IMG/VR virus record: IMGVR_UViG_3300012942_000089
Coordinates: 1 to 35,717 of that record
DNA length: 35,717 nucleotides
Strand: one strand, 5' to 3'
DNA from: a virus
Taxonomy: Duplodnaviria > Caudoviricetes
Under the pieces are notes generated by a model. That model did no database searches. It saw only the letters and a program-made list of their open reading frames with translations, and was not told where the DNA came from. The first letter of the stretch is position 1. The number at the start of each line of letters is the position of its first letter. The translations under genes were made by a program, and so were the position numbers. Positions 1 to 35,670 of this stretch are shown one piece after another.

Positions 1-232
1 ACGAATAATAAAAGCCTCATCCAACGAAAACTCCATTATCGCCGATTTTTTCTCTGGCTCCGGAACCACTGCAGCCGTCGCGGAAAAATTAGGCCGCCGC
101 TGGATCGCCACCGACCTCGGCAAGCCCGCCTGCATGATCACACGCAAACGCCTCATCGACCAAGACGCGAAACCATTTTTGTATCAGGAGATGATAAATG
201 AACCAAACTATTTCCCCCATCACCGAAATTAA
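1..232 (+). CDS. C-terminal part of an N6A/N4C DNA methyltransferase (beta class, type III Mod-like); 5' end outside window
   Basis: Not in the ORF track. Frame starting at nt 2 reads [62 protein letters not shown]..., containing SAM-binding motif I (DFFxGSGTT); stop TAA at 230-232. Confidence 0.88.
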
Positions 233-482
233 AAACCAATTTCCGAACGCATTCTATTTCACACCCGAAATGATCGGCGTGGCGTTGGATATAAAAATTC
301 ATGTCGTGCGCTATTATTGCCGCCGGCTTTTCCCGACACACGACGGCTATTATAGATTTTTTCTCGAAGCCGGAAAACACGATTTATCCTTTGACGATAT
401 GTTGAATGTGATACGGATGATTCACCAATCGAAGCGGCAATCAAGGGCGCGAAACAAAAGCGCGAAAAGCAGCTTAATGTAA
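198..482 (+). CDS. Small protein, possible MerR-like/winged HTH DNA-binding protein
   Basis: AGGAG RBS at 186-190; [23 protein letters not shown] resembles a MerR-type HTH; basic C-terminus; lies just upstream of the lysis cassette. Confidence 0.5.
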
Positions 483-558
483 ATTCTTTCTACGTTTTTT
501 ATATATTTCTCGCATCCACTTTCCACCTGTGCGCAAAATAACAGCAGGAAGGTGTACT

Positions 559-1191
559 ATGGAGAATATCCTCTCAATTGTTTTTACGGCGATCATTGTG
601 CCGTTTTTGACGGCGGTTTTTAACCGCGAGAATTGGAACGGCAAATTGAAGTTCGGTATTGCGGTGCTGGTGTCGATTGTTTTCGGCGCTATTCAGCAGA
701 CGGCAGCCATCAAACTGGGATGGGCGTCACAGGACGGCAACGCCATCCTGGCTGCTATTGCTTTGGTTTTTAGTGGCGGGCAAGCCTTCTTTCAGGCGTT
801 TCCGAATACTATCGCCAGCGTGGAGAAAAATGTCAACGGCGTTCCCGCGCCGGCGGCGAATATCGGCGATCTGATCGACGAAGCCATCAGCGCCGCCACG
901 CCGTTGATCGTCAGCGAGATCGAGAAGAAGTTCGGCAATGCCGTTTCAGCGGCAACAGTTCCATCCGTGGCGGGAATTCCCGGCGCGGTTCCAAGCGAAC
1001 CGCAGGCGCAATTGGGCGGGCCAACGGTTCCTGATAACCCCGTGGCAGCTACAACTTACGACGCACCGCCCGCACCGACGATCACGCCCGCGCCATCCGT
1101 GCAGGCGCAAGTGGCGGCGGTAACACAAGCCGTTGCCTCTGGAACTTCCGTTGAAAAGGTGGTGGATACTTATGCTCCCGTGGCAGGTTGA
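559..1191 (+). CDS. Holin-like membrane protein with long Pro/Ala/Val-rich tail
   Basis: AGGAAGG RBS before ATG 559; about 3 hydrophobic segments in the first 85 aa; immediately upstream of the endolysin. Confidence 0.7.
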   Translation: MENILSIVFTAIIVPFLTAVFNRENWNGKLKFGIAVLVSIVFGAIQQTAAIKLGWASQDGNAILAAIALVFSGGQAFFQAFPNTIASVEKNVNGVPAPAANIGDLIDEAISAATPLIVSEIEKKFGNAVSAATVPSVAGIPGAVPSEPQAQLGGPTVPDNPVAATTYDAPPAPTITPAPSVQAQVAAVTQAVASGTSVEKVVDTYAPVAG

Positions 1192-1909
1192 TTTAACGAA
1201 GTTTGATGACAGATTTAAGGCACTCCTTGGCGTCAAATACAAGCTGGGCGCGAAAGATCCATATTTAGGCGCGCCGTCTTCGCAGATCGAATACCTGGAT
1301 TGCAGCGGTTTCACCCGTGATGAGATTTATAGCGCGGCTGGCGTTGTTATTCCTGATGGCTCCTATATCCAGCGTGAATACTTTGAAAAAGTACTTTCAC
1401 CTGTTCCTTATGGCCCGGCGCAAAATGATCTATTGATCTTCTTTCTGACCGCAGGAGTGAACGGCGTAGGAAGCGTGGGGCATGTGGGATTTGCCCGCAA
1501 CGGCGTCACCTACGAATGCTACGGCGGCCATGGTGTGGGATCACGTCCGTGGAATACGCCGGTATTGAAGGATCATGTCCACAAAGCATTTAGATTGCCT
1601 TTCAAAACCGCCGTCAAAGGCTATTCGCTTTTCGCGTCTGATGAACACCTGATGAAAGTACTTCCCGTCTACGACGGTCACGCCTACGTGGCGGCGCGCA
1701 CGTGGGCGGACTGGTTCAAACAGCAAGTTGCCTGGGATGCGCCAAAAGTACTTTTGAACGGCAACCCGCTCGACGGCGACGTGAAGCTGATCCCGGAAAA
1801 CGGGCGCAACGTCGCCTACATCCCGTTCACCACGGCGGCCGCCTTCACTGGCGTCAGCTACGTGGTGGATAACGCAAAGCATGAAATCCGGCTCAAGCCA
1901 GGTATGTGA
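1172..1909 (+). CDS. NlpC/P60 (C40) endolysin with C-terminal copper-amine-oxidase-N-like domain
   Basis: LDCSGF catalytic Cys and GHVG His motif; C-terminal ..AYVAAR..VAWD..AYIPF..VDNAKHEIRL pattern. Start 1172 (GGTGG RBS) preferred over 1133. Confidence 0.85.
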   Translation: MLPWQVDLTKFDDRFKALLGVKYKLGAKDPYLGAPSSQIEYLDCSGFTRDEIYSAAGVVIPDGSYIQREYFEKVLSPVPYGPAQNDLLIFFLTAGVNGVGSVGHVGFARNGVTYECYGGHGVGSRPWNTPVLKDHVHKAFRLPFKTAVKGYSLFASDEHLMKVLPVYDGHAYVAARTWADWFKQQVAWDAPKVLLNGNPLDGDVKLIPENGRNVAYIPFTTAAAFTGVSYVVDNAKHEIRLKPGM

Positions 1910-2442
1910 TCATGCGTTTCCTTATTGAAATATTGACACTCGCGATGTTATTTCTAATCTTCATCGCGTTGTGTTTCGATATTAATTTACATTTTCGTAA
2001 TGGAGAAAGTCTTATGTCAGTATTAGACCAAACAGCCGAGTTGCAGGAAGCAACTACCGAACTCACATCCGTCATCGCGGATGAAAAAGCGCAAGTGGCG
2101 CAAGCTATCAGTACGCTCAACGACAAGGTGTCCGACTTGGAAGCCGCCGCGCCGCCAGAAGTGGATTTGTCGCCGGAGATCGCCGCGGTGCGCAACGCTG
2201 CCGATGCAGTCCGCGCCATTTACGAGCCGCCGGCAACTGATGATAGCGCGCCGGCAGACGACGCAAGCACACCTGTTCCGGTCACCGCTGACCCTGTGGC
2301 CGATGATACGGATACCACCGCGCAAGCCGATTCTGGCAATAGTGCACCGACGGACGATTTAGAAACCGCCGATCCCACCGCTCCGGATACTCCGGAATCT
2401 CCCGCCACACCGGACGAACCGGACACGGGATTAGACGGGTAA
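1906..2442 (+). CDS. Lysis-cassette protein: N-terminal TM helix, coiled coil, acidic Pro/Asp/Thr tail (alternative start 2014)
   Basis: GTGA overlap with endolysin stop; hydrophobic N-terminus; second GGAG-ATG start at 2014. Confidence 0.6.
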   Translation: MIMRFLIEILTLAMLFLIFIALCFDINLHFRNGESLMSVLDQTAELQEATTELTSVIADEKAQVAQAISTLNDKVSDLEAAAPPEVDLSPEIAAVRNAADAVRAIYEPPATDDSAPADDASTPVPVTADPVADDTDTTAQADSGNSAPTDDLETADPTAPDTPESPATPDEPDTGLDG

Positions 2443-2466
2443 GTACTTCCTCCGAAAGTACTTTTG

Positions 2467-2502
2467 ACGGGCGCGCGTTCACTTATGGCGCGCGCCCGTT
2501 TT
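2467..2502 (+). terminator. Probable intrinsic terminator after the lysis genes
   Basis: 11-bp stem ACGGGCGCGCG (2467-2477) / CGCGCGCCCGT (2489-2499) followed by a short T run. Confidence 0.6.
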
Positions 2503-2517
2503 GTAAGAAAAGAAATT

Positions 2518-2601
2518 ATGGACCCGTTATTTCGATTCCTGACCGCGCTCACAATCTTCCTTTTTGTCGCCTATTTTGTCGGTAAAGAGGTAGTGTCATG
2601 A
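2518..2601 (+). CDS. 27-aa single-TM microprotein MDPLFRFLTALTIFLFVAYFVGKEVVS
   Basis: Below ORF-track cutoff; hydrophobic core; its TGA overlaps the next ATG (ATGA 2598-2601). Confidence 0.55.
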   Translation: MDPLFRFLTALTIFLFVAYFVGKEVVS

Positions 2602-2852
2602 CCACAAAAGTACTTTCAATGAAAATCAAATTGCCCGCGCACCGCGAAAATGCGCTTGACGACAAATTACTGAATGCGCCAGGCGAAGAATACTTTCCCG
2701 CGTATCTCAAAGAGCACCGGCCTAATCTGATAGATGACGGAGTATTCACCGGCGAATTGGCGGCAGATGATTTTGTCTCTGAAAGAACGGCGCGCTATTC
2801 CAATGTGCGACGGCGTAAGCAAAGCAAGCTAAAAAGGGCGGTGAGGGCGTGA
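2598..2852 (+). CDS. Hypothetical protein (84 aa, basic C-terminus)
   Basis: GAGG RBS; overlaps with neighbours at both ends. Confidence 0.6.
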   Translation: MTTKVLSMKIKLPAHRENALDDKLLNAPGEEYFPAYLKEHRPNLIDDGVFTGELAADDFVSERTARYSNVRRRKQSKLKRAVRA

Positions 2853-3187
2853 CTATCTGGGATGGTTTGTCGATATTTGGTTCATTATTGTCACTTGTTT
2901 TAGGTGGCTTATTAGCGGAGTGGAAAAGTGACATGGCCGCCATGCGCGACGAAATCAAAGAGCTCCGCGAAGAATGTAGAAAAAACGAAGCGCGCATCGA
3001 TGCTTATCAAAAAAACGAATATTTGACGAACCGCAAATTAGATCGCGTTATTGATTATTGTCGGATGCAAACACGTGAAATGCGGGACGTTTTGAGCATC
3101 AACAAAAAGGGGCAGGTACTTGCCCCGGAACACATTGAAAAACTGGAATCTTTGCCGACGATTGATGATGTTTTGAAGGAATTTTGA
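2849..3187 (+). CDS. Membrane-anchored coiled-coil protein (second holin/spanin-like candidate)
   Basis: N-terminal hydrophobic helix followed by a heptad-like charged region; GTGA coupling. Confidence 0.6.
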   Translation: MTIWDGLSIFGSLLSLVLGGLLAEWKSDMAAMRDEIKELREECRKNEARIDAYQKNEYLTNRKLDRVIDYCRMQTREMRDVLSINKKGQVLAPEHIEKLESLPTIDDVLKEF

Positions 3188-3188
3188 A

Positions 3189-3638
3189 ATGGCTAAAGAA
3201 ACTAACAAAATCGGCAAATTCCATTTTGATATAAACATCCCGGCGGAAGTATTACCAGCAATCAAAAAAGTACTTTTGCCGCTGGATTGGATGTTACCTG
3301 GCTGGGCGCAACATTGCTTTATCCATTATTGTATTGATGATGAGGACGGCCACACGGCCAGCGCTGATGTTAGTTATGAATATCGCTTTATTCACGTCAA
3401 TCTGTATCCGCAGTGGCTAACACTGGATGAGGAATACAGAATTGAAACTTTGGTTCACGAACTAATTCATTCCATGACGATGATTTTGTTTTCATATACA
3501 GAGCAAACCGTGCAGGCGCTTACTAAAGATCAAGAATTGTTAAAAGAAGCAATTTTAGAGGAAATGAAAAACCGGCATGAATCCATGACGCAGGATTTGA
3601 CGTGGGTTATCCGAGGTTTGATGAAGCAACATGGCTAA
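3189..3638 (+). CDS. HExxH zinc metallopeptidase-like protein
   Basis: ETLVHELIHS motif plus a downstream HE; AAGGA RBS. Confidence 0.7.
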   Translation: MAKETNKIGKFHFDINIPAEVLPAIKKVLLPLDWMLPGWAQHCFIHYCIDDEDGHTASADVSYEYRFIHVNLYPQWLTLDEEYRIETLVHELIHSMTMILFSYTEQTVQALTKDQELLKEAILEEMKNRHESMTQDLTWVIRGLMKQHG

Positions 3639-4233
3639 AACAGTAGCATCCGAACTCGCAAAATTATTAGAAGCCCCAGCACTGGATAAACAGTCGTTGG
3701 AGTTTGACGCGCCGCAACTTTGCGCTGTGACGGGCGAAACAATTACGGCTGGTTATCGCATCAAAGATGCCACAACATCCGCCACGAATGAGTTCATGGA
3801 CTTATTCCATGGAACGCCTGATGGATACATCAGTGAGGATGTGGCGCGATTGATGAAAGTCCAGCGCATCGGCAATGTGGCTATTCACAACGACATATTA
3901 CATCGTCCGATGATCTCTAACGAAAGCGCCAAGGATCAAGGCCGCGCGTGCTGGAGTGAATTAGTTGGCGATGAAGAATCCGGCGTCCTCCTGACGCAAA
4001 CTTTGAAGCATAAAATGGATGTTGCGGGATTAGGCAAATATACAAAAGGAGTGAAAGTCTCATTTGACACGAATTATGAAAAAGCCAGAACAAAGCTGGT
4101 GAACATTAAGGGCATATCGAGCAAAGCGAGTATGTGTCCTGTGATCATGGAAGGACACAGCACGGCAATTCAATTCGCGTGGGATGTGGGGATTGGTAAT
4201 TGCACCGGTTGCGGGTTTGGGGCGTTGAGGTAA
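3631..4233 (+). CDS. Chimeric Cas-derived protein: possible Csf1-like N-terminus fused to a Cas6 C-terminal half
   Basis: Ends in ..CPVIMEG..IQFAWDVGIGNCTGCGFGALR, an exact GhGxxxxxGhG Cas6 glycine loop at the C-terminus. N-terminal CAVTGETITAGY..WSELV resembles type IV Csf1 from recall (less certain). Confidence 0.7.
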   Translation: MAKTVASELAKLLEAPALDKQSLEFDAPQLCAVTGETITAGYRIKDATTSATNEFMDLFHGTPDGYISEDVARLMKVQRIGNVAIHNDILHRPMISNESAKDQGRACWSELVGDEESGVLLTQTLKHKMDVAGLGKYTKGVKVSFDTNYEKARTKLVNIKGISSKASMCPVIMEGHSTAIQFAWDVGIGNCTGCGFGALR

Positions 4234-4898
4234 TGAGTAAAGCAGAGCGCGCAGCGGTCGAAGATAACCAGGATTTAAAAATTTCACGTCCTTACCCGCC
4301 AAAGCAATTACTTGTGACATTGCCGGAGATTGAATTTCTGCCCGCGCCGGAAATTACGACCTGGATACGCGAAGTTTTACTAAACCCAGAAAGTCCTTTA
4401 TTCAACGAAGACCATAATCATTTGAATGAAGCAAAAATTGGCTGTCTGTGGACGAGCCAATATTATGCGAAGCATCAGCGCGAAGTGATGGGGCTGTGCG
4501 AAGTGCCGAACATCCAGGGCAATGCCTGGTTGAAGGGCAGGATGGAACAGCAGCTTGTCGGGTGGTTCGGGGACGTGCCGGACTTTGTTTTGACGTTCTA
4601 TGCGCCGTTCGCGAATGCTATTACGAACGCGGAGTGGTGCCGATTGGTGGAGCATGAGGTTTACCATTGTGGCCAGCAGTTAGATGATTACGGAATGCCG
4701 AAATTCACCAAGGAAGGCGCGCCTAAATTCGGGATTCGCGGGCATGATGTTGAAGAGTTTGTTGGTGTTGTCCGGCGCTACGGTCTGGGCGCGTGCCATG
4801 CCGGAGTGAGAGAATTTGTCGAGACGGCGAGCCAAGCGCCGGAGATAGCGGAGATTGATATTGCCAGCATGTGCGGGACGTGCTTAGCGAAAATTTAG
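4233..4898 (+). CDS. Putative phage metallopeptidase
   Basis: LVEHEVYHCGQ and GHDVEEFVGVVRRYG motifs typical of the phage metallopeptidase often found before terminase; TAATG coupling at 4231-4235. Confidence 0.85.
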   Translation: MSKAERAAVEDNQDLKISRPYPPKQLLVTLPEIEFLPAPEITTWIREVLLNPESPLFNEDHNHLNEAKIGCLWTSQYYAKHQREVMGLCEVPNIQGNAWLKGRMEQQLVGWFGDVPDFVLTFYAPFANAITNAEWCRLVEHEVYHCGQQLDDYGMPKFTKEGAPKFGIRGHDVEEFVGVVRRYGLGACHAGVREFVETASQAPEIAEIDIASMCGTCLAKI

Positions 4899-4920
4899 TT
4901 TTATTTAGTTTTACAAATGC

Positions 4921-5382
4921 ATGAGTGCCAAGGGTCTGAAGGATGAACAAAAATGCTATATTGTGCAAGCACTTGCGCGGTTTGTGTCGCCTTCGGAAGT
5001 TGCGGCGGGTGTAAAACAGGAATATGGCATTGAAGTTTCGATGCAGGCTTTGCAGGTTTATGACCCCACTACTGTAGCGGGGAGGCGCCTAGGCGAGAAA
5101 TACAGCCAGTTATTCAAAGAGACTCGCACGAAGTATTTGGCTGACACAAGTAGCATCGGCATTGCGCAACAAGCGTTCCGTTTAAACAAGCTGCATGAAA
5201 TGGCGATGAATGCTTTGAGCCGAAAGAATTACCAACAGGCGGCGCAATTTATGGAGCAGGCGGCAAAAGAAGTGGGCGGAGCGTATACGAACCGACGAGG
5301 TCACACCAGCAGCGACGGCAGCATGACGCCAACAGCAATACAAATAATTCCTTATGTTAAGCCAGATAGCGATACCGCCTAA
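4921..5382 (+). CDS. terS: Terminase small subunit (DUF2280-like)
   Basis: IVQALA.F..PSEVA..VK.EYG, YDPT, A....EQAAKEVGGAYTNRR pattern; directly upstream of TerL. Confidence 0.85.
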   Translation: MSAKGLKDEQKCYIVQALARFVSPSEVAAGVKQEYGIEVSMQALQVYDPTTVAGRRLGEKYSQLFKETRTKYLADTSSIGIAQQAFRLNKLHEMAMNALSRKNYQQAAQFMEQAAKEVGGAYTNRRGHTSSDGSMTPTAIQIIPYVKPDSDTA

Positions 5383-6604
5383 ATTAGTTCCGGTCTTTGA
5401 TTTTTCAAAGCACTATCGGTATCGTGGCGCTAAAGGAGGTCGCGGGAGCGCTAAGACACGCACATTCGCAAAGATGGCGGCAGTGCGGGCGTGGCAGCTT
5501 TCTATGTGCAAAATGAGCGGCGTTATCCTGTGCGGCCGTGAGTTTATGAACTCGCTGGAAGATTCCAGCATGGCGGAAGTTAAAGCGGCGATAGAAAGTG
5601 AATCGTGGCTGCGTGAACAATACGACATTGGTGAAAAGTACATCCGTACTAAGAATCGGCGTATAGAGTTTGTCTTCGCGGGATTACGGCATAATTTGGA
5701 TAGTATTAAATCCAAGTCACGGATTTTAATAGCGTGGATTGACGAAGCGGAAGCGGTGAGCGAAACGGCGTGGATAAAGCTATTGCCTACTGTGCGTGAG
5801 GAAGGTTCGGAAATTTGGATAACGTGGAACCCGGAGAAAGATGGTTCACCGACTGACAATAGGTTCGTGAAACATCCTCCGGCTAATTCGAATATCGTAG
5901 AGATGAACTATCACGACAATCCTTACTTTCCGGCAACGCTGGAGCAGCAGCGCCAGGACGACCAGAAGCGGATGGATGAAGGTACATACCGATGGACTTG
6001 GGAAGGCGATTATCGCAAAGAAAGTGAAGCTCAAATATTCGCGGGTTGCTATGAAGTGGCAGAGTTTGAGCCAGCGGAAGACTGGACGCTTGTTCAAGGT
6101 TTAGACTGGGGCTTCGCGAACGATCCCACAGCGGCGGGCAGAAGTTACGTGTGGGATAACAAGCTATTCATTAGCCACGAAGCCGTGAAAGTCGGTTTGG
6201 AATTGGACGACACGCCGAAGTTCATCATGGATAGAATCCCGGACTTTGAAAAATGGGAAACGCGGGCAGATTGCGCCAGGCCGGAAAGTATTAGGTATGT
6301 GAATAGACACGGTTTGGCGCGCGTGAGAGCTTGCAAAAAGTGGCCCGGCAGCGTGGAAGATGGGATCGCTCATATCAAAAGCTACGACCGCATTTTTATC
6401 CACCCGCGTTGCGTGGAAACAAAAAAGGAATTCGGATTGTATAGCTATAAGGTAGATCGGCTGAGCGGCGATATAAAGCCTATTCCGGAGGATGCTTATA
6501 ATCATTGCATAGATCAGCTTAGGTATGGGTTGCAGCCGATGGTGAGAATGAGAGAGCAAACCACGCCACAATCCACACGCACTCAAAAGAGGTATTTTAA
6601 CTAA
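5354..6604 (+). CDS. terL: Terminase large subunit, PBSX-like family
   Basis: GGRGSAKT Walker A, WIDEAE Walker B, TWNP, GLDWGF and NHCIDQLRY nuclease motifs. Confidence 0.96.
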   Translation: MLSQIAIPPKLVPVFDFSKHYRYRGAKGGRGSAKTRTFAKMAAVRAWQLSMCKMSGVILCGREFMNSLEDSSMAEVKAAIESESWLREQYDIGEKYIRTKNRRIEFVFAGLRHNLDSIKSKSRILIAWIDEAEAVSETAWIKLLPTVREEGSEIWITWNPEKDGSPTDNRFVKHPPANSNIVEMNYHDNPYFPATLEQQRQDDQKRMDEGTYRWTWEGDYRKESEAQIFAGCYEVAEFEPAEDWTLVQGLDWGFANDPTAAGRSYVWDNKLFISHEAVKVGLELDDTPKFIMDRIPDFEKWETRADCARPESIRYVNRHGLARVRACKKWPGSVEDGIAHIKSYDRIFIHPRCVETKKEFGLYSYKVDRLSGDIKPIPEDAYNHCIDQLRYGLQPMVRMREQTTPQSTRTQKRYFN

Positions 6605-8244
6605 TGGCAATTACAATTCAATCTACCAATAAGGCAAAGGAACTTCTGCAATCAATCGACGGCAAGCGTTTACCCTTGATGAAGGTTATCCGTGAGTACC
6701 AGCGGGGCGATCATTGGCAGAAAGCCACTGGCTGGGGCGGCCCTCCATTGCCAGAAGACGGGATCACTTCCGTGCAAGCGAAGGAGGATCAGACGCCTAT
6801 CCCTGTAATTGATAAGGCTATTGAGCGCTACGTTACCGGCATGATTGGAGATGAGCCGGCTTTTGAGGTGACTCTTGTTCGCGAGGTGACAGATGAATCC
6901 CCCGCGACACCTGAAGAACTGGCGGAAATGGCAGAGTTTAATGAGGTGCTCACGCATTTTTGGGATGGTAGGGGCGTTTTGGAAAAGGTGCAGGATGCGC
7001 TGGAAAATCTTTGTAGCGGACGTGGGACATTACGACCGTTCATTCCTCCGGAATCGCCCATTATTACAGATGCAAAACGAGTAAGTACTCTCACTGAGGC
7101 GATGGATTACATCCATTTGGAAGCGCCGTCGTGGGAGCAATGCGGAGTATTTACGGACGTGCGCTCAATGCGGGAGATTGGTATCTATCTTTATGACGAA
7201 CAATATATCGACAGCGATGGCGCAACTCGCTATAAACCGCGAGTAGAGATCACGGAATTAGACGACAATAAAAATACTCTATTCCGCGTTATTGAAGGCG
7301 GGCAGTCAACAGAAGATCAAACGTATGATTGCAATGGCAATATTTGGGTATTCCAGGCAATTGATGACAAGCCACTTATTCGGGAACCTCAACGCAAATT
7401 GCAAAGAGCGATTGATTTTCTTAACACGATTATTCCCAAGAATGCTACCTATGCCGGTTTTCGGGAGAGGCATTTTATCAATGTAAAGCAGCCCATGGAT
7501 GAGAATGGGAAACTTGCCGATCCACAGATGGGACCAACGACGGTTAATTTTTGGCAACCGACAGTGACTACGGATTCCGAAGGCAATCAGAAAGCAGCGC
7601 CAGCGACTCTGATTTTAAGTGAGCCTGTTAATAGCCAGCCGATCCGAGATGATATTACGCACATGATTTACATGTTCCTAAAATCTGTTCACCAGGATGA
7701 TGAAATGATGAATGGCGATGCCGTTGCGAGTGCTGTGAGCCGCGTTCAAGCGCGAGCAGGATTCGCAAATTCGCTACTGCGCAACAAACCAAAAGTCGAA
7801 CGAATGTTGCGCGATATGTTGATGACAGTTCTTTGTCTGGCGTGTGAGTTGTCCGGCGAAAAGGGAAAGCTGCAAAAACTTAAAACGGATTATCGTATTC
7901 GCGTGGACGTAAAGCCCAATAGCGGGCCGCTTTCACCCGAAGAGGAGTTGGCAGTTGTTTCATTTTACGAGAAAGGCGTTATTTCGCGTGAAACTGCACA
8001 GGTGATGCTGGGCGTTGAAGATGTGGAAGGCGAAGCTCAAAAGCTACGCGAAGAACAGGAAACTTCACAAATATATCTGCAAAACCAAGCTACGATTATG
8101 CAGACCGTGGCGGTCGCTGGCGCTCATTTGGAGAACGCAGCCATTTTCGCAGGCGTTGATAAGGAAGAAGCCAAGAAGTTAGGGCAAGGGGATTTTGTAG
8201 GAGGCGAAGATGACAACACAAACAACGAGAGCGGAGCCGGTTAA
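6604..8244 (+). CDS. Portal protein
   Basis: 546 aa directly after TerL (TAATG coupling); C-terminal GVISRETA..LG..D..E pattern of SPP1-like portals. Confidence 0.8.
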   Translation: MAITIQSTNKAKELLQSIDGKRLPLMKVIREYQRGDHWQKATGWGGPPLPEDGITSVQAKEDQTPIPVIDKAIERYVTGMIGDEPAFEVTLVREVTDESPATPEELAEMAEFNEVLTHFWDGRGVLEKVQDALENLCSGRGTLRPFIPPESPIITDAKRVSTLTEAMDYIHLEAPSWEQCGVFTDVRSMREIGIYLYDEQYIDSDGATRYKPRVEITELDDNKNTLFRVIEGGQSTEDQTYDCNGNIWVFQAIDDKPLIREPQRKLQRAIDFLNTIIPKNATYAGFRERHFINVKQPMDENGKLADPQMGPTTVNFWQPTVTTDSEGNQKAAPATLILSEPVNSQPIRDDITHMIYMFLKSVHQDDEMMNGDAVASAVSRVQARAGFANSLLRNKPKVERMLRDMLMTVLCLACELSGEKGKLQKLKTDYRIRVDVKPNSGPLSPEEELAVVSFYEKGVISRETAQVMLGVEDVEGEAQKLREEQETSQIYLQNQATIMQTVAVAGAHLENAAIFAGVDKEEAKKLGQGDFVGGEDDNTNNESGAG

Positions 8245-8422
8245 GCCGCGCGGCAAAGCAATCAAATGGACTGACGAGGACATAGACAGAATGGTCGCGG
8301 AAGATACTTCCGATGCAGGAATCGAACAAGCTCAAGCTGATTGGAATGAAAAAGCGCCGAAGGATTATAAAAGTCTTTTGGATGCAGAACCTATAAGCAA
8401 TGGCACTACTCCAAAAAAGTAA
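8210..8422 (+). CDS. Hypothetical protein (70 aa)
   Basis: GGAGG RBS; fills the gap between portal and minor head gene. Confidence 0.6.
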   Translation: MTTQTTRAEPVKPRGKAIKWTDEDIDRMVAEDTSDAGIEQAQADWNEKAPKDYKSLLDAEPISNGTTPKK

Positions 8423-9053
8423 AATAACGCCTGATTTTCGTTGGAATCCAGCCTTGCGCGGCGGTCGTTACATTGGCCCGAACGGACGTATAGTCTCGCC
8501 TCTTAGGGTGCGCGAGGTTATTGATGATTACATTGAAAAACAGGCCGATGTAGCCCGCAATCTGGCGGCGCAACTAAGCAACAGAGAAATTACAATTGCC
8601 GAATGGCAAAAGGCGATGCACAAGGTTGTCGCAAATACCATCAACGCCAATATCGCAGCTGAGAAAGGCGGCTGGGCGCAGATGGATGCTAAGGCGCGAG
8701 GGACGGCGGCTCAGTTGATAAAACAGCAATTGGGCGGTCTTAAAAAATGGGAATCGCGCGGTTTACGTGGCTTTGCCGAAGACCTGGAAAGCGGCAAGCA
8801 AAAAATGGACGGATCATTTATCAACCGCGCTTTGATGTATGTAAATTCAGGGAGGGTAAGTTATGAATCAGTGCGGCGCGATGACATGAAAGAGCGCGGC
8901 ATGACAGAAGAGAAAAACATTCGTCATGTCACGGATAGTTGCAAAGGGTGTTTAGAGGCCACAACCGCAGGATGGCAGCCTATCGGGACATTGCCCATGA
9001 TCGGTGATCGGGATTGCGTAATGAACGATAAGTGTTCTTTTGATTATCGCTAA
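8400..9053 (+). CDS. Minor head morphogenesis protein (Mu gpF/SPP1 gp7-like)
   Basis: Position after portal; C-terminal CxxC..GW.PIGTLP.IG...C....KC Cys pattern. Confidence 0.7.
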   Translation: MALLQKSKITPDFRWNPALRGGRYIGPNGRIVSPLRVREVIDDYIEKQADVARNLAAQLSNREITIAEWQKAMHKVVANTINANIAAEKGGWAQMDAKARGTAAQLIKQQLGGLKKWESRGLRGFAEDLESGKQKMDGSFINRALMYVNSGRVSYESVRRDDMKERGMTEEKNIRHVTDSCKGCLEATTAGWQPIGTLPMIGDRDCVMNDKCSFDYR

Positions 9054-9072
9054 TAGTAACGATAAATCAGTG

Positions 9073-9101
9073 TTGACAAATTTTCAGTAAAGGATTAAAA
9101 T
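9073..9101 (+). promoter_or_regulatory. Sigma70-like promoter sequence
   Basis: TTGACA (9073-9078), 17 nt, TAAAAT (9096-9101); overlaps the scaffold RBS. Confidence 0.5.
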
Positions 9102-9102
9102 C

Positions 9103-9870
9103 ATGTTCAGTCACATCTTCAGTCGTACCTACAGTCGTTTTACCCCAGTCGTATTTTTTGAAGCCGATGGCGTTCCCGCCGGAGGCGCAAGCCCACAGTC
9201 GGAAGATAAACCGTCGAACCCCACTAAAGCCGAAATTGAAAGCGTTGTTCAAAAGACGATCCAAAACGTGTTGAATTCGCAGCGTGTCGCAGGTGATACC
9301 AGCGCAGCTCTTGAAGTTCTTGCAGCAAAAGCGCTCAAGGAAGAAAAGCGCGCCAAAGACGCCGAGGCGAAGATCGGAACTATTCCCGAAGATGTCAAAG
9401 CAAAACTGGACGCCTTTGAAGCTCTTGGGACAGTCGAAGACATAACCAAGCGTCTTGAGAACGCTACAACACTGGAAGCCGAAAAGGCGCAACGCGAACT
9501 CACTGATGGATTCCGCAAAGCCGCGCAAGTGGCAGGCTATGACGCCGATGCGCTTTTGGAAGTCATTGGGCAGATTCCAAAATCTGTTATCGAGACCATC
9601 AAAAAAGATGGTAAGGATATTCAGATTGCAAAAGTACTTTCAGGTGATGATGACAAAGACGGCAAGTCTTTTGAGGAATCTATGAAAGAACGCTTCCCGA
9701 AAATCCATGACAGTTTGAAAGCGGACAATAAACATCGAGTGCAAGCGCCGGTAATGGGAGTGGGGAGCGGAACATCGCAGGTTAGCCAGGCGGATGCTTT
9801 CATAGCCCGAATTGAAAAACAGAAGGCGGAAAAGCGCAATCCTTTGATGCCGGTAGTGGATGCAAAATAA
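9103..9870 (+). CDS. Capsid scaffolding protein
   Basis: Charged, helical/coiled-coil, FFEADG..AGG N-terminus; lies upstream of the capsid genes. Confidence 0.7.
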   Translation: MFSHIFSRTYSRFTPVVFFEADGVPAGGASPQSEDKPSNPTKAEIESVVQKTIQNVLNSQRVAGDTSAALEVLAAKALKEEKRAKDAEAKIGTIPEDVKAKLDAFEALGTVEDITKRLENATTLEAEKAQRELTDGFRKAAQVAGYDADALLEVIGQIPKSVIETIKKDGKDIQIAKVLSGDDDKDGKSFEESMKERFPKIHDSLKADNKHRVQAPVMGVGSGTSQVSQADAFIARIEKQKAEKRNPLMPVVDAK

Positions 9871-9900
9871 AGTAGCGCGATAGCGCAAGGAGTATTTATT

Positions 9901-10533
9901 ATGGGATGGACTGATAATACAACCATCAACGCGCCGGGCGCAGTTGTAGACCCGGCTAGCATTATGATGAACAGCGGTCGTCAGGTGGACTTCACAAACA
10001 CGCCTGACAGCTATAAAGGCGCTGACGGCAACAAACTGATCCCGGCTTTCACTGTTGTTAGCCAACTGGCAAGCGGTAAAGTGATTCCGCGAGTAGGCAA
10101 TGAATTGACTGTCACCGTCGCGGTTGCCTCCAACGTTGCCACGGCCACAAAGACCGCTCACGGTCTTGCGGCAGGGCAACAGGTTTATATCAGCGGCGCG
10201 AATCTTTCGTATGTGAATGGTATTAAAACCATTGCCACTGTGCCGACTGCTGATACGTTTACTTTCGCAGCCACCGGCAGCGATGCAACGGCTACAGGGA
10301 CGATCAAGGCAGGTATTGTGGCGTGCGGGATGCTTGTTTCCAATGCTGTTGAAAACAGTAAGAGCGATTCTGTTTCAGGGTATGGCATTATCGTTGGCGG
10401 AAATCTTTATGAGAACCTGTTGCCCGATGCGACCGGCACACCGGCGGTTCTCTCCGATGAGATTAAAACCGAGTTGGCCAACGCGGGGACAGGGTTCTAT
10501 TTCGAACAATACGGAGATTCCCGAACCTCTTAA
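9901..10533 (+). CDS. Head decoration/cement protein with inserted beta domain
   Basis: Between scaffold and MCP; K.IPA.TVV...GKV.P and GML motifs flank a TAHGL..GQ.VYISGA..NG..T...TFTF insert. Confidence 0.6.
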   Translation: MGWTDNTTINAPGAVVDPASIMMNSGRQVDFTNTPDSYKGADGNKLIPAFTVVSQLASGKVIPRVGNELTVTVAVASNVATATKTAHGLAAGQQVYISGANLSYVNGIKTIATVPTADTFTFAATGSDATATGTIKAGIVACGMLVSNAVENSKSDSVSGYGIIVGGNLYENLLPDATGTPAVLSDEIKTELANAGTGFYFEQYGDSRTS

Positions 10534-10568
10534 TTTAATGCCATTTTGGCAAAGGAGTAACATAAAAG

Positions 10569-11690
10569 ATGGATATTAACTTTAATGCTGTATTGGCCGA
10601 TTTGGAGCCGGGTTCTTTGCTGAATCTGATGTCTGCGGCGCGCAACGATCCCGATTACTTTTTCACTACGTTGTTGCCAGAACGCAATATGCCCGATTAC
10701 AACGCGGAATTGGGAAATATGACGGTGCGTTCCACGATGGCCGGATTGGTGGGCATGGATTCGCCGTTCCCGCCCGGCGGTATTGTGCAAGCGCGAACCT
10801 TCAATGAAAAGGTGGCGAAGATTGCTATCTCCATCGGCATGAATGAAGAGACGCTGCGCACTATTCAAAAATTTGTGCGTGAATACATCTTGCAAAACAA
10901 TGGGGCAGGTGCACCGGCTCCCACTGACTTCTTGACCGGCGAAGCATTGAACTTCTTTAATAAAGTTGTGGTGCAGGGCATCAAGGACACCCGCGAATGG
11001 TTGCGAGGCCAGGCGCTACTTGGCGAGATAGATTGGACATTCAATAACAAAACGTTATCCGTGGATTACGGATTCCCCAGTGCCAACATTTTGACATCGC
11101 GGTCGGGGACGTCGGCTTATAACGGATCGGCATCCAGTTTCTGGACGGACGTGAAGGCAATGCGCAAAGCACTGCGGACATCCACGAACATCATCTTTTT
11201 GTGCCATCCAGACATGGCAGAGGCGATTGTGGATAATCCTGTGAATAGCGTGAATGTTGTAGCCCAAACCGTCAATTCACGGACAATACAAAAAGTTGTT
11301 GGTGATAACCGTGTCCCCACGGGCGATGCGCGGGACAAACTCACCCTTATCACCTATGGGTTAGAAGGCGAAGTTTTGGATCCCTCTGATGTTTCCGTGA
11401 CGGTGACAAAAGAGTTCCAGAAAGATAACAAACTACTTGCAATCGGCAATGGCAACAACCGTGCTTATCGCGTCGGTCAAGGTTCATCCGAAGATCCCAT
11501 CAATGATCTGGAATTGGGCTACACGCATCTTGCGCCAACAATAGAGGGCAATGGCGCGATGGGCGACTGGGGCCGAATGTTTACCCCAGAAGCCCGTCCA
11601 ATGCAGTTGCAAGGCGAAGGCGTTTCTAACTGTTTGCCGGTCATTGAGCGTTACAATGCGGTTGTTGTCGGTACTTCCACAATCTCTTAA
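10569..11690 (+). CDS. Major capsid protein (lambda gpE-like family)
   Basis: 373 aa; EWLRGQAL.G.I....N...VDYG.P pattern and C-terminal LPVI; AAGGAG RBS. Confidence 0.85.
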   Translation: MDINFNAVLADLEPGSLLNLMSAARNDPDYFFTTLLPERNMPDYNAELGNMTVRSTMAGLVGMDSPFPPGGIVQARTFNEKVAKIAISIGMNEETLRTIQKFVREYILQNNGAGAPAPTDFLTGEALNFFNKVVVQGIKDTREWLRGQALLGEIDWTFNNKTLSVDYGFPSANILTSRSGTSAYNGSASSFWTDVKAMRKALRTSTNIIFLCHPDMAEAIVDNPVNSVNVVAQTVNSRTIQKVVGDNRVPTGDARDKLTLITYGLEGEVLDPSDVSVTVTKEFQKDNKLLAIGNGNNRAYRVGQGSSEDPINDLELGYTHLAPTIEGNGAMGDWGRMFTPEARPMQLQGEGVSNCLPVIERYNAVVVGTSTIS

Positions 11691-11695
11691 CCATT

Positions 11696-12205
11696 ATGAC
11701 AGTCACCGCCGAAAGGCTTTGTCAGCAATCAAACCTTGAGCCGACTGATCTGGACGAATCTATTGTCAGTCCTGACGATGATGAGTCCGGTCAGTTGGCG
11801 GCGATGGAGGCATGGGTAGAGGAAAACGTATTGCCTATTGCCGATGGCGAAGTGTCCGTTCCATTGTTAAAAGCGACTGGCTTCGACACAGTGGATGATT
11901 TTATCGATCAACGATTCTCGTCCGTTTCAGATGATGTAAGAACCGGCTGGAAGGAAAAGGGGAATGCGTTGTATGATGGCGCTGTGATTAGTTACGGGCG
12001 CAGCGAAATCAATAAATGCATCAACTCCACTTCTGATGAATACGATAAGGATTCAGATCAGGATCGCATCCAGGGCAATCAGCGTTTGCAAAAGCTGGTT
12101 GAATGGGCTACTACGTTAATTGAGACACAGGGTCAGGGCGACGCCTCTCAAGAGGTCACTTTAAACAATTCCAGTTCGGCGCAAGTCAAGGCGGTGTGGT
12201 CATAA
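11696..12205 (+). CDS. Putative head-tail adaptor
   Basis: Synteny after MCP only. Confidence 0.5.
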   Translation: MTVTAERLCQQSNLEPTDLDESIVSPDDDESGQLAAMEAWVEENVLPIADGEVSVPLLKATGFDTVDDFIDQRFSSVSDDVRTGWKEKGNALYDGAVISYGRSEINKCINSTSDEYDKDSDQDRIQGNQRLQKLVEWATTLIETQGQGDASQEVTLNNSSSAQVKAVWS

Positions 12206-12627
12206 TGGCAACATTCAGAACAACGCCTGGCGGATCGCAAATCGGACGTATTTCAGATCGCTATGAGCGGCGCGCGAAGAGTGTTGGACGCGAGAGCGCA
12301 AGGCATCGCGGACGCATGGCGAAGATTCTCAAAAAAGGATTGGAAGATGCTACGCAGGAACAGCTTTATGATCGCACTACATTAAAAGTGACACGGGATA
12401 TGTTCAACAGTATCCGCGCAAGATTTTTAGGTAATGTAGTGCAGGTTGGCTATTTCTTTGGCCGTGGCGCACGACATGCAAAATACCGCCTCAACATGAT
12501 TGGTCGTTCAAAACAAGATGGTCACGTGTTGGACATGCAACCATCGGTATATATCAAAAAACATTGTGACCGCGATATAAAGCGTTCTGAACGCGAGTCG
12601 ATGCGGGCTATCAGGGAGACAAAATAA
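12205..12627 (+). CDS. Putative neck/tail-completion protein (basic)
   Basis: TAATG coupling; Arg/Lys-rich, T..MFNSI pattern like HK97 gp10-type proteins; synteny. Confidence 0.5.
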   Translation: MATFRTTPGGSQIGRISDRYERRAKSVGRESARHRGRMAKILKKGLEDATQEQLYDRTTLKVTRDMFNSIRARFLGNVVQVGYFFGRGARHAKYRLNMIGRSKQDGHVLDMQPSVYIKKHCDRDIKRSERESMRAIRETK

Positions 12628-13104
12628 ATGCCTTGGCCAATTGGCACTGACGCAACCGACAATCTGAAAACTGTTTTTGAAACGTGGTTGCGTGGGCGTC
12701 TCACTGCATCGCCTTACAAACAGCGTCTGCCGCGCAGGCATATTGTTGTTGGCGTTCCCAATAGCAGCAAGAAAATTTCCGGGTCAATAAAAGTACTTTT
12801 ATACACCGGAAAGGATGACGAACCGCCTTATGAGTTCAATTCAGAAAGCGGCTACACGATGGAGGAAACGCACCGCATTACCATTGACGTTCAGTCCGAC
12901 GAACGCGGCGCGAAAGCCAACGAGGATGCGTTGGTTGCGTCCATTATTCGGCAAATAATGCAATCCCCTACGGAACGCGCAGGGTTGATTGCATTAGGTG
13001 TATATAACGTAAAAGAATCTGCTGACGAGTTGGAGATTGATGGTGTGGATTTCAAACGTCCCATCAATTTTACATGTTCAACAGATACGCTAATTTCAAA
13101 TTAA
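12628..13104 (+). CDS. Putative tail terminator
   Basis: Synteny and size; GGAG RBS. Confidence 0.45.
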   Translation: MPWPIGTDATDNLKTVFETWLRGRLTASPYKQRLPRRHIVVGVPNSSKKISGSIKVLLYTGKDDEPPYEFNSESGYTMEETHRITIDVQSDERGAKANEDALVASIIRQIMQSPTERAGLIALGVYNVKESADELEIDGVDFKRPINFTCSTDTLISN

Positions 13105-13117
13105 GAGAGGTTTTAAA

Positions 13118-13573
13118 ATGCCACAGTATGCAAATGATGTTTTAGCTAGAGTAAATGGGCTGCTCAACATTGGCGGCGATTTGGTCAAGTTTACCGGCGT
13201 CGCGCAAGGCGGCGGCGATTTAGTTGCTTACGATTCAATGCCGGTAGGTGGCCCGCCGTCTGCCAATTATTATCAGGACGTGCGAGCGCCAGTCACAATT
13301 GATTTGACGTGTCCTATTCCCGGCGAAGATGCCACGGCATGGAACACGTTTTTAGATCGATTCATGGCTGATAGTTCTGGATTGAGCGTTGGCGCAAAGA
13401 AGTTTGATGTTGTGGCCTCTCCCTCAACAAGCGGTCAAATGATGTTGATTGGCTTGAATGATATGATCGGCCGCCAATTCACGGTAAGTTCGCGGCCAAA
13501 GATCAATACGCAATATCAGCAGAATGCGGAATTGTCCGTGACGCTCACCGAAAGTGGAAGCACAAGCGAATAA
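13118..13573 (+). CDS. Putative major tail (tube) protein
   Basis: GAGG RBS, beta-rich 151 aa, position in tail module. Confidence 0.45.
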   Translation: MPQYANDVLARVNGLLNIGGDLVKFTGVAQGGGDLVAYDSMPVGGPPSANYYQDVRAPVTIDLTCPIPGEDATAWNTFLDRFMADSSGLSVGAKKFDVVASPSTSGQMMLIGLNDMIGRQFTVSSRPKINTQYQQNAELSVTLTESGSTSE

Positions 13574-13597
13574 AAGTACTTTTAAGGAGAAAACTTA

Positions 13598-14002
13598 ATG
13601 CCTAAAACATTAAACGTTTCACTGAACATTTCCGGTGAGGCTGTGAATGTGGCGATCAAAACCACGGCCGTAAATAACGCATTGCGGCGTTATGAGTTGC
13701 CAACAACAGAATTCGCTGCGTCCGCCGCCAATAAAGAAGTATTGGCTCCAATTGATATTAGCGCCGCGTCGTTGGTGATGATTGTCCCGACAACGGAAGT
13801 GACGCTAAAAACCAACAGTAGCTCGGAAGCAACCGACACCAAAACGTTGGCCGCCGGACAGGGGATTATCTGGTGGGACGGCTGCGGTTTTGATTTAAGT
13901 GATTACTTTAGCGCCGACATCACGGCGATGTATTTCACCAATAATGACGAAGCAAACGCCGGTTCTGTTTCTATTGTAATTTTGGACGACGCAACTCTGT
14001 AA
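13598..14002 (+). CDS. Virion structural protein (beta-rich)
   Basis: AAGGAG RBS; tail-module position. Confidence 0.5.
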   Translation: MPKTLNVSLNISGEAVNVAIKTTAVNNALRRYELPTTEFAASAANKEVLAPIDISAASLVMIVPTTEVTLKTNSSSEATDTKTLAAGQGIIWWDGCGFDLSDYFSADITAMYFTNNDEANAGSVSIVILDDATL

Positions 14003-14011
14003 AAGGAATCT

Positions 14012-14719
14012 ATGAGTATTAAAACATTAGTAAATCCCACGCCGGACGGAGAATCCGGCGTGGTGTCATCGTTATCTGACATCAAGGCGCGCCTGGCAAA
14101 ACGCCGGGAGCGCGACTTGTCCAAGCTCCCCACGCATTATCATGAAGCGTTGGGTACAATTCATATCGGGTTTTTGCCCGCTGATGGATACCATGCCATC
14201 GAAGCCGCTGACATGCGGCGTGAGGAATTCGGCATTGGCACGGATCACCAGTGGCCGGATGAGGATATTAAGAAGTTTCAGGATAACAAGCGCGATCGTG
14301 CCTATTTGAAATATGGCGTGATCACCGGCGACAATCAGCGGCTGGATAATGACGTGGTGGAATTATTATTATCTGGCGATTTCGGCGCGGAAAACCGCAA
14401 ATTGATAAACGCTATTCAAAAGCAAAATCCGCCGCGCGAAAACCTTGTCGATGAGCTGCGCGTGTCTCATGCGTTCAATCGCATGACATGCATCCTTTTC
14501 CGCATTTTGGAGCGCGCCGGGTGTTTGGAAAAAGTACGTGATTTCCTTTTGGCTGATCCTGAAAGCGTAGAAGCAAAAATACTTGCCGAAGATTTGGGCA
14601 AATGGGAAGCAACGTTGCCAGCATGGGAAGTCTATTTGGAAGCCGAAGATGCTGCCAAGCATTATGGCATTGGTGTTTATGACCGCCTAAAAATTGAAGC
14701 CGCTGATCAAGCCGAATAA
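14012..14719 (+). CDS. Putative tail assembly chaperone
   Basis: Immediately upstream of tape measure gene; charged and helical. Confidence 0.55.
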   Translation: MSIKTLVNPTPDGESGVVSSLSDIKARLAKRRERDLSKLPTHYHEALGTIHIGFLPADGYHAIEAADMRREEFGIGTDHQWPDEDIKKFQDNKRDRAYLKYGVITGDNQRLDNDVVELLLSGDFGAENRKLINAIQKQNPPRENLVDELRVSHAFNRMTCILFRILERAGCLEKVRDFLLADPESVEAKILAEDLGKWEATLPAWEVYLEAEDAAKHYGIGVYDRLKIEAADQAE

Positions 14720-14721
14720 TC

Positions 14722-16941: not shown

Positions 16942-16950
16942 GAGGGAAAG

Positions 16951-17997: not shown

Positions 17998-18062
17998 CAA
18001 CAACGCCGCGATATTTTCCAAAACTAAAATTATATAATCGCACTCGCGCCGCGCACCGCGCG

Positions 18063-34453: not shown

Positions 34454-35494
34454 TTAACGCTTCAAAATCCCTGCCAGGGGGCTACTCGCACGGTGCTGGT
34501 TCTCTAAATCGGCGCTTGCCAGTTTCGCGTACGTTTGAACCATTTCCAGCTTTTCATGTCCCAACATCAATTGTAAAGCCAGCAAATTGCCTCCACGTCG
34601 CAAAAACTCAATAGCAAAAGTGTGGCGACAGGTATGAGGTGAAACGCGGACGTCGGTAATTCCCGTCATCGTTTCCAAGCGCTCAAAAAATTGCAAGAGG
34701 CCGGATCGCGTAAGAGGTTTCCGGCTTCCACGCAAGCCGCGATTTCCGGTGAAAAGAAAATCGTCTGGTTTCACATCATCGTCTCGCAAATGCCGCCAAA
34801 TGGCGCGTGTGGCGTCAGTGTCAAAAGGCACGGTTCGCACTTTATCGCCTTTCCCGCGCACAGTCACATTACCTAAATTTTTATTCATTGTCAGATCGCG
34901 CAAACGTATTCCGCAAAGCTCGCTGGCGCGGATTCCGGTGTCAATCATGAGCGACACAATAGCAACGTCGCGGGCGGGCGCTGTGGTGCGCCTGGCGGCG
35001 TCAAGGAGTAGCAAAACGTGGTCTGGTGTGAACGGGCGGACGTTGGGTTTTTTGGGCTTTGGAACGGTAATTCCCTCGACCGGTGAATCTGCCAGGATAC
35101 CTTCGTTGACGAGCCAACGGAAATAGGTTCGCAGATTGATGAAATATACTTCCACAGCACGGACAGAAAGTTGCTTACTGCGACGTGGGTTTCCCCAACG
35201 ACCGGCGGGCAAATTATGAGAATTGGTCAAATACCCAATATAGGCTTTGATGTCGTAGGGAGTTATTTCGGTTTTACTGGTTTCGTTGAGCCACCAAATA
35301 AACCGCTCCAACGCTAAAGTCTTAATCTCAATCGTGCGCGGGGACATGCGATTATACTCCGCGTCAACAATCCAGTCTTTGACGTGATATATAACTTTTT
35401 GTGTTGTGACAGTACTTTCTGGTGCGATACGTTGACCAGCAACGAGGCGAAACGGCTGCCTCTGATTCTTCCAAACAGGCGGTGTAACTTGCAT
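34454..35494 (-). CDS. int: Tyrosine recombinase / phage integrase
   Basis: TGIRASEL (R), GKGDK (K), HTCRH (HxxR), LGH and Y catalytic residues; SAM-like N domain; GGAG RBS supports ATG 35494. Confidence 0.93.
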   Translation of the reverse strand: MQVTPPVWKNQRQPFRLVAGQRIAPESTVTTQKVIYHVKDWIVDAEYNRMSPRTIEIKTLALERFIWWLNETSKTEITPYDIKAYIGYLTNSHNLPAGRWGNPRRSKQLSVRAVEVYFINLRTYFRWLVNEGILADSPVEGITVPKPKKPNVRPFTPDHVLLLLDAARRTTAPARDVAIVSLMIDTGIRASELCGIRLRDLTMNKNLGNVTVRGKGDKVRTVPFDTDATRAIWRHLRDDDVKPDDFLFTGNRGLRGSRKPLTRSGLLQFFERLETMTGITDVRVSPHTCRHTFAIEFLRRGGNLLALQLMLGHEKLEMVQTYAKLASADLENQHRASSPLAGILKR

Positions 35495-35549
35495 TTTAAT
35501 CTCCAAAAGTGTGTATTTGAAGATCAAACGCCCCAAGCGTAAATGCAAT

Positions 35550-35593
35550 AAACCCTTATACAGCACGGCTACAGTCTTATATAGTAAGGGTTT
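35550..35593. repeat. Inverted repeat between tRNA 3' end and integrase
   Basis: AAACCCTTA (35550-58) / TAAGGGTTT (35585-93). Confidence 0.6.
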
Positions 35594-35596
35594 TAA

Positions 35597-35670
<74 letters not shown>

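Follow-up and report, generated by a model that had tools for sequence, protein, structure and literature searches.

What is a protein that begins as a Csf1 and ends as a Cas6 doing beside the packaging genes of a tailed phage? The question was raised by a reading of the sequence alone, which pointed to an open reading frame at 3631..4233 (plus strand) of the 35,717-nt stretch of viral DNA analyzed here (hereafter, the window) and offered two answers: the scar of a deleted type IV operon, or a Cas-derived protein repurposed as an anti-CRISPR or an RNA decoy. We find that the ORF is a true Csf1–Cas6 chimera, both parents of which could be identified. As to its origin, the scar of a phage type IV-B operon is the most likely reading, ahead of a new anti-CRISPR.

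The chimera (P0001, 200 aa, ATG to TAA) reads through 200 codons with 0 internal stops. Its first 8 nt also belong to the upstream ORF (3189-3638), and a TAATG is common to its stop and to the ATG of the downstream metallopeptidase gene (4233), bearing out the initial description of an in-frame ORF coupled on both sides. These overlaps sit exactly at the native csf1 start and the native cas6 stop. Residues 1-112 (3631..3966, plus strand) belong to a type IV Csf1 (Cas8-like) of a phage IV-B clade, while residues 113-200 (3967..4233, plus strand) correspond to the last 40% of a Cas6 of type I-B (PGING-type). The junction, first placed near 3964-3970, maps to 3964..3972 on the plus strand (GTT GGC GAT, encoding V112-G113-D114): by alignment A4, with which the HMM limits agree, the parents switch between V112 (3964-3966) and G113-D114 (3967-3972), G113 fitting either parent and being assignable to neither. 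A 7,300-base contig from another assembly pipeline, which is a second assembly rather than a second sample and possibly stems from the same sample as the window, spans 980-8279 with no difference, gap or joint over the junction, at a depth (26.9) equal to that elsewhere on the phage. Three sources list the protein, which forms a one-member cluster and is found on one contig of 43,975 bp.

Residues 1-112 alone gave 0 matches to Pfam, NCBIfam, PADLOC Cas or PHROG models, and profile scans with the N-half and with its relative P0002 yielded no Csf1 match (one of eight family members did, at E 0.006). A PDB sequence search with alignment A1 also returned nothing, nor did the ESM Atlas (best 0.76). 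The Csf1 identity rests on fold and gene context. The N-terminal part is 61% identical to P0002 (247 aa) over 136 columns, corresponding to the first 129 residues (70% in alignment A4), and the AlphaFold model of P0002 (pLDDT 88, pTM 0.84) matched the type IV-A Csf1 chains 7xg1_A and 8rc3_G with Foldseek E values of 3.5e-4 and 7.3e-4 (next row, E 1.9). The same two chains gave VIA Z scores of 11.1 and 10.6 (next, 2.9), with rmsd values of 4.4 and 4.1 over ~200 aligned residues. The front half had thus been correctly recognized as Csf1-like; among its relatives, the PADLOC model Csf1_0_IV also finds matches (best E 1.2e-6).

The Csf1 part covers positions 3-116 of the 249 in the family HMM and stops ~15-20 residues before the family motif T.xKKRLW. 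Both this motif and the GFSK motif are absent, and the chimera is without the central sheet and the C-terminal helical part of a full-length Csf1. Relatives of P0002 number 195 at 50% clustering, of which the best 150 were examined. Within the family, P0156 and P0158 are whole Csf3–Csf1 fusions, and P0021 and about 8 other Csf1 proteins (300-330 aa) carry an N-terminal extension of ~65 aa, which in P0021 is HTH/WYL-like.

The assignment of the back half to Cas6 held up in direct profile searches. Residues 113-199 matched Pfam Cas_Cas6_C (PF01881) above the cut-off (E 6.1e-7), and residues 112-199 matched the PADLOC Cas6b model PDLC02101 at E 2.7e-33, over profile positions 132-217 of 218; TIGR01877 scored 32.5 on residues 112-200, against a cut-off of 58.65. 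The glycine-rich loop spotted at the outset is there (GIGNCTGCGFG), together with a β-hairpin. The Cas6 part is 74% identical to P0003 over the last 92 columns and groups with P0003/P0004 in the tree (support 99/97). It begins at residue ~134 of the 221 of an intact Cas6, residues 1-133 being missing. The protein had been described as retaining only the second RAMP half: the first RAMP domain is indeed gone, but the second is itself incomplete, lacking its first strand and hairpin. The missing stretch includes the strand FKVASPV, which we take to be the opening strand of the second RAMP domain. A fold search with the model of the chimera returned only weak Cas6 rows (E 1.9-2.3).

Three residues, Tyr18, His27 and His36, are invariant in 8 Cas6 relatives (alignment A7), and all lie in the part that the chimera has lost. 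In the Cas6 proteins studied, the catalytic His and Tyr fall within the first ~50 residues (PMC3945376). We infer that Tyr18, His27 and His36 would be the catalytic residues of this family, and the chimera, having lost them with the first RAMP domain, is predicted to be unable to cut repeat RNA.

The nearest Cas6 relative with a gene context, 62% identical to the C-terminal part, comes from an Armatimonadota genome (G050), where its gene heads an operon of the PGING I-B kind (cas6, cas5, cas8, cas7, cas3, cas4, cas1). The same sequencing run as the window contains a 708-base contig, at depth 4, that matches 4168-4229 with 9 differences in 62 bases; its loose end reads like P0003, and its likeness to the window stops at the cas6 stop codon. 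Searching viral contigs with the Cas6 alignment produced two loci (L072 and L073, on contigs of 237 and 277 kb) whose Cas6 is 40-41% identical and which have no csf gene, and a plasmid search found just 3 ordinary cas6 genes. In L072 and L073, the cas6, of the same family, is followed by cas5- and cas3-like genes, and the operon of L073 looks cut short. Three I-B loci of Armatimonadota share a related gene of ~200 aa on the opposite strand right after cas6 (L036:10606-11226, L037:10996-11658 and L038:10717-11286, all on the minus strand).

Neither half of the chimera has decayed, as far as sequence comparison can tell, which fits a recent deletion and, equally, purifying selection. The chimera differs at 1 of 26 conserved Cas6 columns and at 2 of 20 conserved Csf1 columns, and intact members do so at least as often; eight relative-rate tests, of low power, were all nonsignificant (p 0.23-1.0); and its terminal branch, at 0.20, does not exceed the branches leading to P0003 (0.25) and P0004 (0.32). 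An intact frame does not require a protein function: a third of all deletions preserve the frame, and one that shifted it at this place would likely be polar on the packaging genes.

The AlphaFold model of the chimera is of lower quality (pLDDT 72, pTM 0.51), the low pTM being partly built in, as a split alignment carries no information for AlphaFold that would link one half to the other. Residues 81-110 have pLDDT values of 57-63, versus 86-94 for the like stretch of intact P0002, and residues 189-200 fall below 50. The glycine-rich loop and last strand score below 50, and the loop is predicted to be unpacked; the only intact control modeled was P0002. With such low values at 81-110 and at the loop and last strand, the cut hardly resembles a clean boundary between domains in these models.

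The window is a temperate tailed phage. Its genes run in the order NlpC/P60, chimera, metallopeptidase, DUF2280, large terminase, portal, capsid, tape measure and tail genes, with an integrase and a tRNA-Pro(TGG) at the right end. The upstream neighbor of the chimera (3189..3638, plus strand) encodes 149 aa with a HELIH motif and has a weak SprT-like match below the cut-off (E 0.009); downstream lie a putative phage metallopeptidase (4233..4898, plus strand; PF18894, E 9.4e-30) and, by Pfam, a DUF2280 gene (likely the small terminase), the large terminase and the portal (4921..8244, plus strand). The temperate character and a likely prophage edge are indicated by the tyrosine integrase (34454-35566) next to the tRNA-Pro (35597-35670), both within 34454..35670 on the minus strand. 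Positions 1-232 lie inside a DNA methyltransferase gene, and since the window starts there, the early region is missing. As the protein is also on record on the 43,975-bp contig, ~8 kb of phage lie beyond the window searched.

In agreement with the sequence-only reading, neither an array nor other cas genes accompany the chimera: the six frames of the 35,717-nt window contain no csf2, cas11, csf3, cysH-like gene or second cas6, and there is no 20-nt repeat pair spaced 45-94 nt. An Rfam scan of the window found only a tRNA, and a promoter and terminator scan stayed at chance level. As in type IV-B, then, the locus is array-less and on a mobile element (terminase, portal, capsid, integrase). The immediate surroundings are the weakly SprT-like gene, the metallopeptidase and the packaging genes, with no acr gene or regulator recognized beside the chimera.

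Two observations concern the phage at large. The palindrome AAAGTACTTT occurs at 24 sites between 1388 and 34454 of the window, in and between genes, where an order-3 Markov model expects 0.1, and AAAAGTACTTTT occurs at 12 sites; neither the chimera nor any other locus counted has the palindrome, and it is not enriched in 201 Armatimonadota genomes (at most 2 sites). It resembles a highly iterated palindrome, or else a protein-binding site used across the whole phage. The same run also contains short contigs (depth 3-5, ~81-87% identity) from a related phage, which line up along 204-18705 of the window and whose depth is the same as that of the P0003-like cas6 contig.

The relatives of the Csf1 part disclose what kind of locus its parent came from. 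In 17 of 17 distinct loci (duplicates merged), csf1 is followed by a gene for a ~470-aa Cas11–Csf2 fusion, after which usually come a CysH-like gene and csf3. This is the layout of array-less type IV-B, a mobile module described as comprising Csf1, Cas11, Csf2, Csf3 and a CysH-like protein (PMC8175902, PMC7038947). The phage-borne clade with the Cas11–Csf2 fusion includes L001, L002, L003, L004, L005, L058, L063, L064 and L067-L070; L002 has a DNA methyltransferase-like gene in the usual cysH-like position. Sequence continues past csf3 in 12 distinct loci, and in one of them (L009) the next gene is a cas6, by a glycine-loop motif filter that could miss divergent cas6 genes. This locus (L009:1122-7575) holds csf1, cas11-csf2, 1.8 kb of other genes, cysH-like, csf3 and cas6, the terminal gene matching PADLOC Cas6 at E 7.6e-21. 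Its Cas6 belongs to a different group from that of the chimera, as would be expected if type IV systems gained Cas6 repeatedly and independently; one survey reports that IV-B lacks Cas6 save for 12 instances and that type IV acquired Cas6 several times (PMC7038947).

Other modules in the family are broken as well. P0067 (344 aa), a single-copy chimera, fuses Csf1 residues 1-~116 to a nearly whole Csf3, with a break in Csf1 within about two codons of the window junction, and P0145 breaks Csf1 about 7 residues earlier; both are single records known as protein, in which an assembly or frameshift error is possible. P0145 and P0114 are truncated Csf1 proteins, L067 has a split csf2, and L071 consists of fragments only. 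The Csf1 alignment gave 1 match in 401 Armatimonadota genomes, in the genome of its own origin, and P0003 was absent from 5 genomes with csf loci.

Independent copies of the fusion, which had been proposed as a check on function, did not turn up beyond the window's own. A search of 5.8 billion clusters gave 11 matches, namely the query, P0002 (front) and nine Cas6 proteins, with no other two-part protein; a second search of the 5.8 billion, restricted to 110-350 aa, gave 14 matches, again with no other two-part protein. When a Cas6 HMM was run over 157 Csf1-family proteins, only the window's own carried a Cas6. A metagenome motif scan returned 10 loci, made up of 8 chance matches, the window's own contig and L014, which has an intact csf1 followed by csf2 and no fusion. 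In viral scans, neither the N-half nor P0002 recovered a locus; the glycine-loop DNA pattern recovered none either, and an annotated phage set had no match to P0002. The terminase relatives (18 loci, 39-67%) had no other tested gene in common with the window, and no sister phage was reached. "Single copy" is nonetheless a weak statement because the family is thinly sampled: all eight proteins looked up form one-member clusters.

Taken together, it is probable that the chimera is the scar of a recent, in-frame deletion of ~3.8 kb within a phage operon of type IV-B plus cas6, a size obtained as the sum of the gene lengths in L001. Phages of this clade carry the array-less module csf1, cas11-csf2, cysH-like and csf3, as seen in the relatives. 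The ancestor would have gained a type I-B cas6 as its last gene, a layout seen once, in L009, and a single deletion would then have joined csf1 codon 112 to cas6 codon ~134. The junction may have been kept because it was in frame, with translation running on from the upstream gene to a stop that overlaps the next start, so that the metallopeptidase, terminase and portal downstream would have been spared a polar effect. The product presumably neither cuts RNA, the first RAMP domain with Tyr18, His27 and His36 being gone, nor could it act as a large subunit, given the loss of the Csf1 central sheet and C-terminal helices. In favoring the first of the two answers originally offered, we rely on the lack of a second copy, on the csf1…cas6 layout in L009 and on the other broken modules in the family. 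The parent would be a module of type IV-B (cas11-csf2, cysH-like), not a type IV-A csf1-csf2-csf3-cas6 operon, and the Cas6 is of the I-B lineage. Against a scar, a direct parent combining the same Csf1 clade and the same Cas6 clade in one operon was not found among the 12 loci, neither half shows decay, and a break site shared by P0067 and the window would seldom arise by chance alone.

Other origins have to be weighed against the deletion scar. The phage csf1 might have recombined in one step with a host type I-B cas6, a host fragment taking the place of the 3′ end of the IV-B module, with no csf…cas6 operon ever involved and a nonfunctional relic as the outcome. We deem this unlikely, even though the Cas6 family does occur in complete type I-B operons (as in G050, at 62% to the C-terminal part), the run does hold the 708-base contig (depth 4) with its P0003-like loose end, and 11 of the 12 IV-B loci show no cas6. 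The resemblance to that contig extends no further than the cas6 stop, which overlaps the next phage gene, so that a random fragment would rarely end there; P0003, at 74% protein identity, is a relative and not the donor; and L009 shows whole cas6 genes joining module ends. A mere assembly artifact, with contigs of different organisms joined at 3964-3972, is very improbable. It is true that all the records may derive from one sample and that the same run contains a related phage (depth 3-5) along with a full-type cas6 relative (depth 4), but the 7,300-base contig crosses the site unchanged at the depth of the phage (26.9), three sources list the protein, the junction has no repeat, and the two genes, which belong to one kind of operon, are joined in frame.

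Also quite improbable is an exapted inhibitor: a chimera produced alongside the late gene products that would work as a defective Cas subunit or as a decoy for RNA. The open frame is coupled at both ends and free of decay, the Cas6 part is of a type I-B lineage that a host could use, P0067 carries the same Csf1 N-part on another RAMP protein, and Cas-derived inhibitors exist, one of them resembling only the last 90 residues of Cas8b (bioRxiv 10.1101/2023.06.24.545427). In a mode of action that we consider a long shot, the Cas6 tail would dock onto type I-B repeat RNA or Cascade, where the N-part of Csf1 would act as a block. The N-terminal part of Cas8 contributes to PAM reading in type IV-A (PMC11519345), and retention of that part in the chimera leaves room for a dominant-negative effect. 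It is just as doubtful that we are looking at an anti-CRISPR caught at birth, in which IV-B deletions repeatedly put the Csf1 N-part, cut at one site, on a RAMP protein (Cas6 in the chimera, Csf3 in P0067), the product then being kept as a poison of the host I-B Cascade or a mask of its repeat RNA. The anti-CRISPR or decoy idea of the sequence-only reading accordingly keeps in its favor that neither half has decayed, but it is countered by the single copy, by a place among lysis and packaging genes with no anti-defense locus, acr gene or regulator recognized there, and by an incomplete second RAMP domain with a glycine-rich loop predicted to be unpacked. Moreover, AcrIB3 and AcrIB4 are each represented by a separate clade, of 45 and 49 homologues (bioRxiv 10.1101/2023.06.24.545427), whereas none was found for the chimera.

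If the chimera is a deletion scar, this phage probably descends from one that carried a type IV-B module of a rare kind, equipped with a type I-B Cas6. Such an ancestor would hint at the loading of host CRISPR RNAs by some array-less IV-B complexes, a point of relevance to the question of the role of IV-B; and the orphan viral cas genes listed as anti-CRISPR candidates would then include fresh deletion products. In the literature searched, neither a Csf1–Cas6 fusion nor a Cas6-derived inhibitor is described, although a list of 358 orphan viral cas genes may include the chimera (bioRxiv 10.1101/2023.06.24.545427). Should the chimera instead turn out to counteract type I-B immunity, it would capture the moment at which cas genes give rise to an inhibitor in a single step. 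It would then be the first inhibitor derived from Cas6 and the first two-parent Cas chimera among inhibitors, and it would show a route from viral cas genes to inhibitors. There is a report of one Cas6 that dampens a I-B system (PMC12102369).

Among known systems, the type IV-B module is the one from which the N-terminal part derives, through a Csf1 that in relatives belongs to an array-less mobile module with csf2, csf3, cas11 and a cysH-like gene; viral IV-B modules also occur in archaea (PMC10848311). The window differs in holding half of a csf1 only, without csf2, cas11, csf3 or the cysH-like gene, and the clade of the chimera differs from typical type IV-B in that cas11 is fused to csf2, a cas6 being a rare exception. 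The C-terminal 87 residues, with the glycine-rich loop, are those of a type I-B (PGING-type) Cas6, sharing 74% identity with P0003 and 62% with the Cas6 from a complete I-B operon, but the first RAMP domain and the first strand of the second are missing, as are an array and Cascade genes. Like AcrIB3 (Cas5-like) and AcrIB4 (similar to the C-terminal part of Cas8b), the chimera is orphan, phage-borne, Cas-derived and partly truncated. Those inhibitors, however, have dozens of homologues in their own clades and a tested activity, while the chimera, of a thinly sampled lineage, has no clade of homologues of its own outside CRISPR loci, is known from one sequence and has two parents, to which it remains 61-74% identical. 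Finally, the type IV-E Csf3–Csf1 fusion (PMC7038947), like P0156 and P0158, likewise unites a Csf1 and a RAMP protein in one chain; there, two whole proteins are joined, Csf3 first, in working operons, whereas the chimera joins two cut halves, with Csf1 first.
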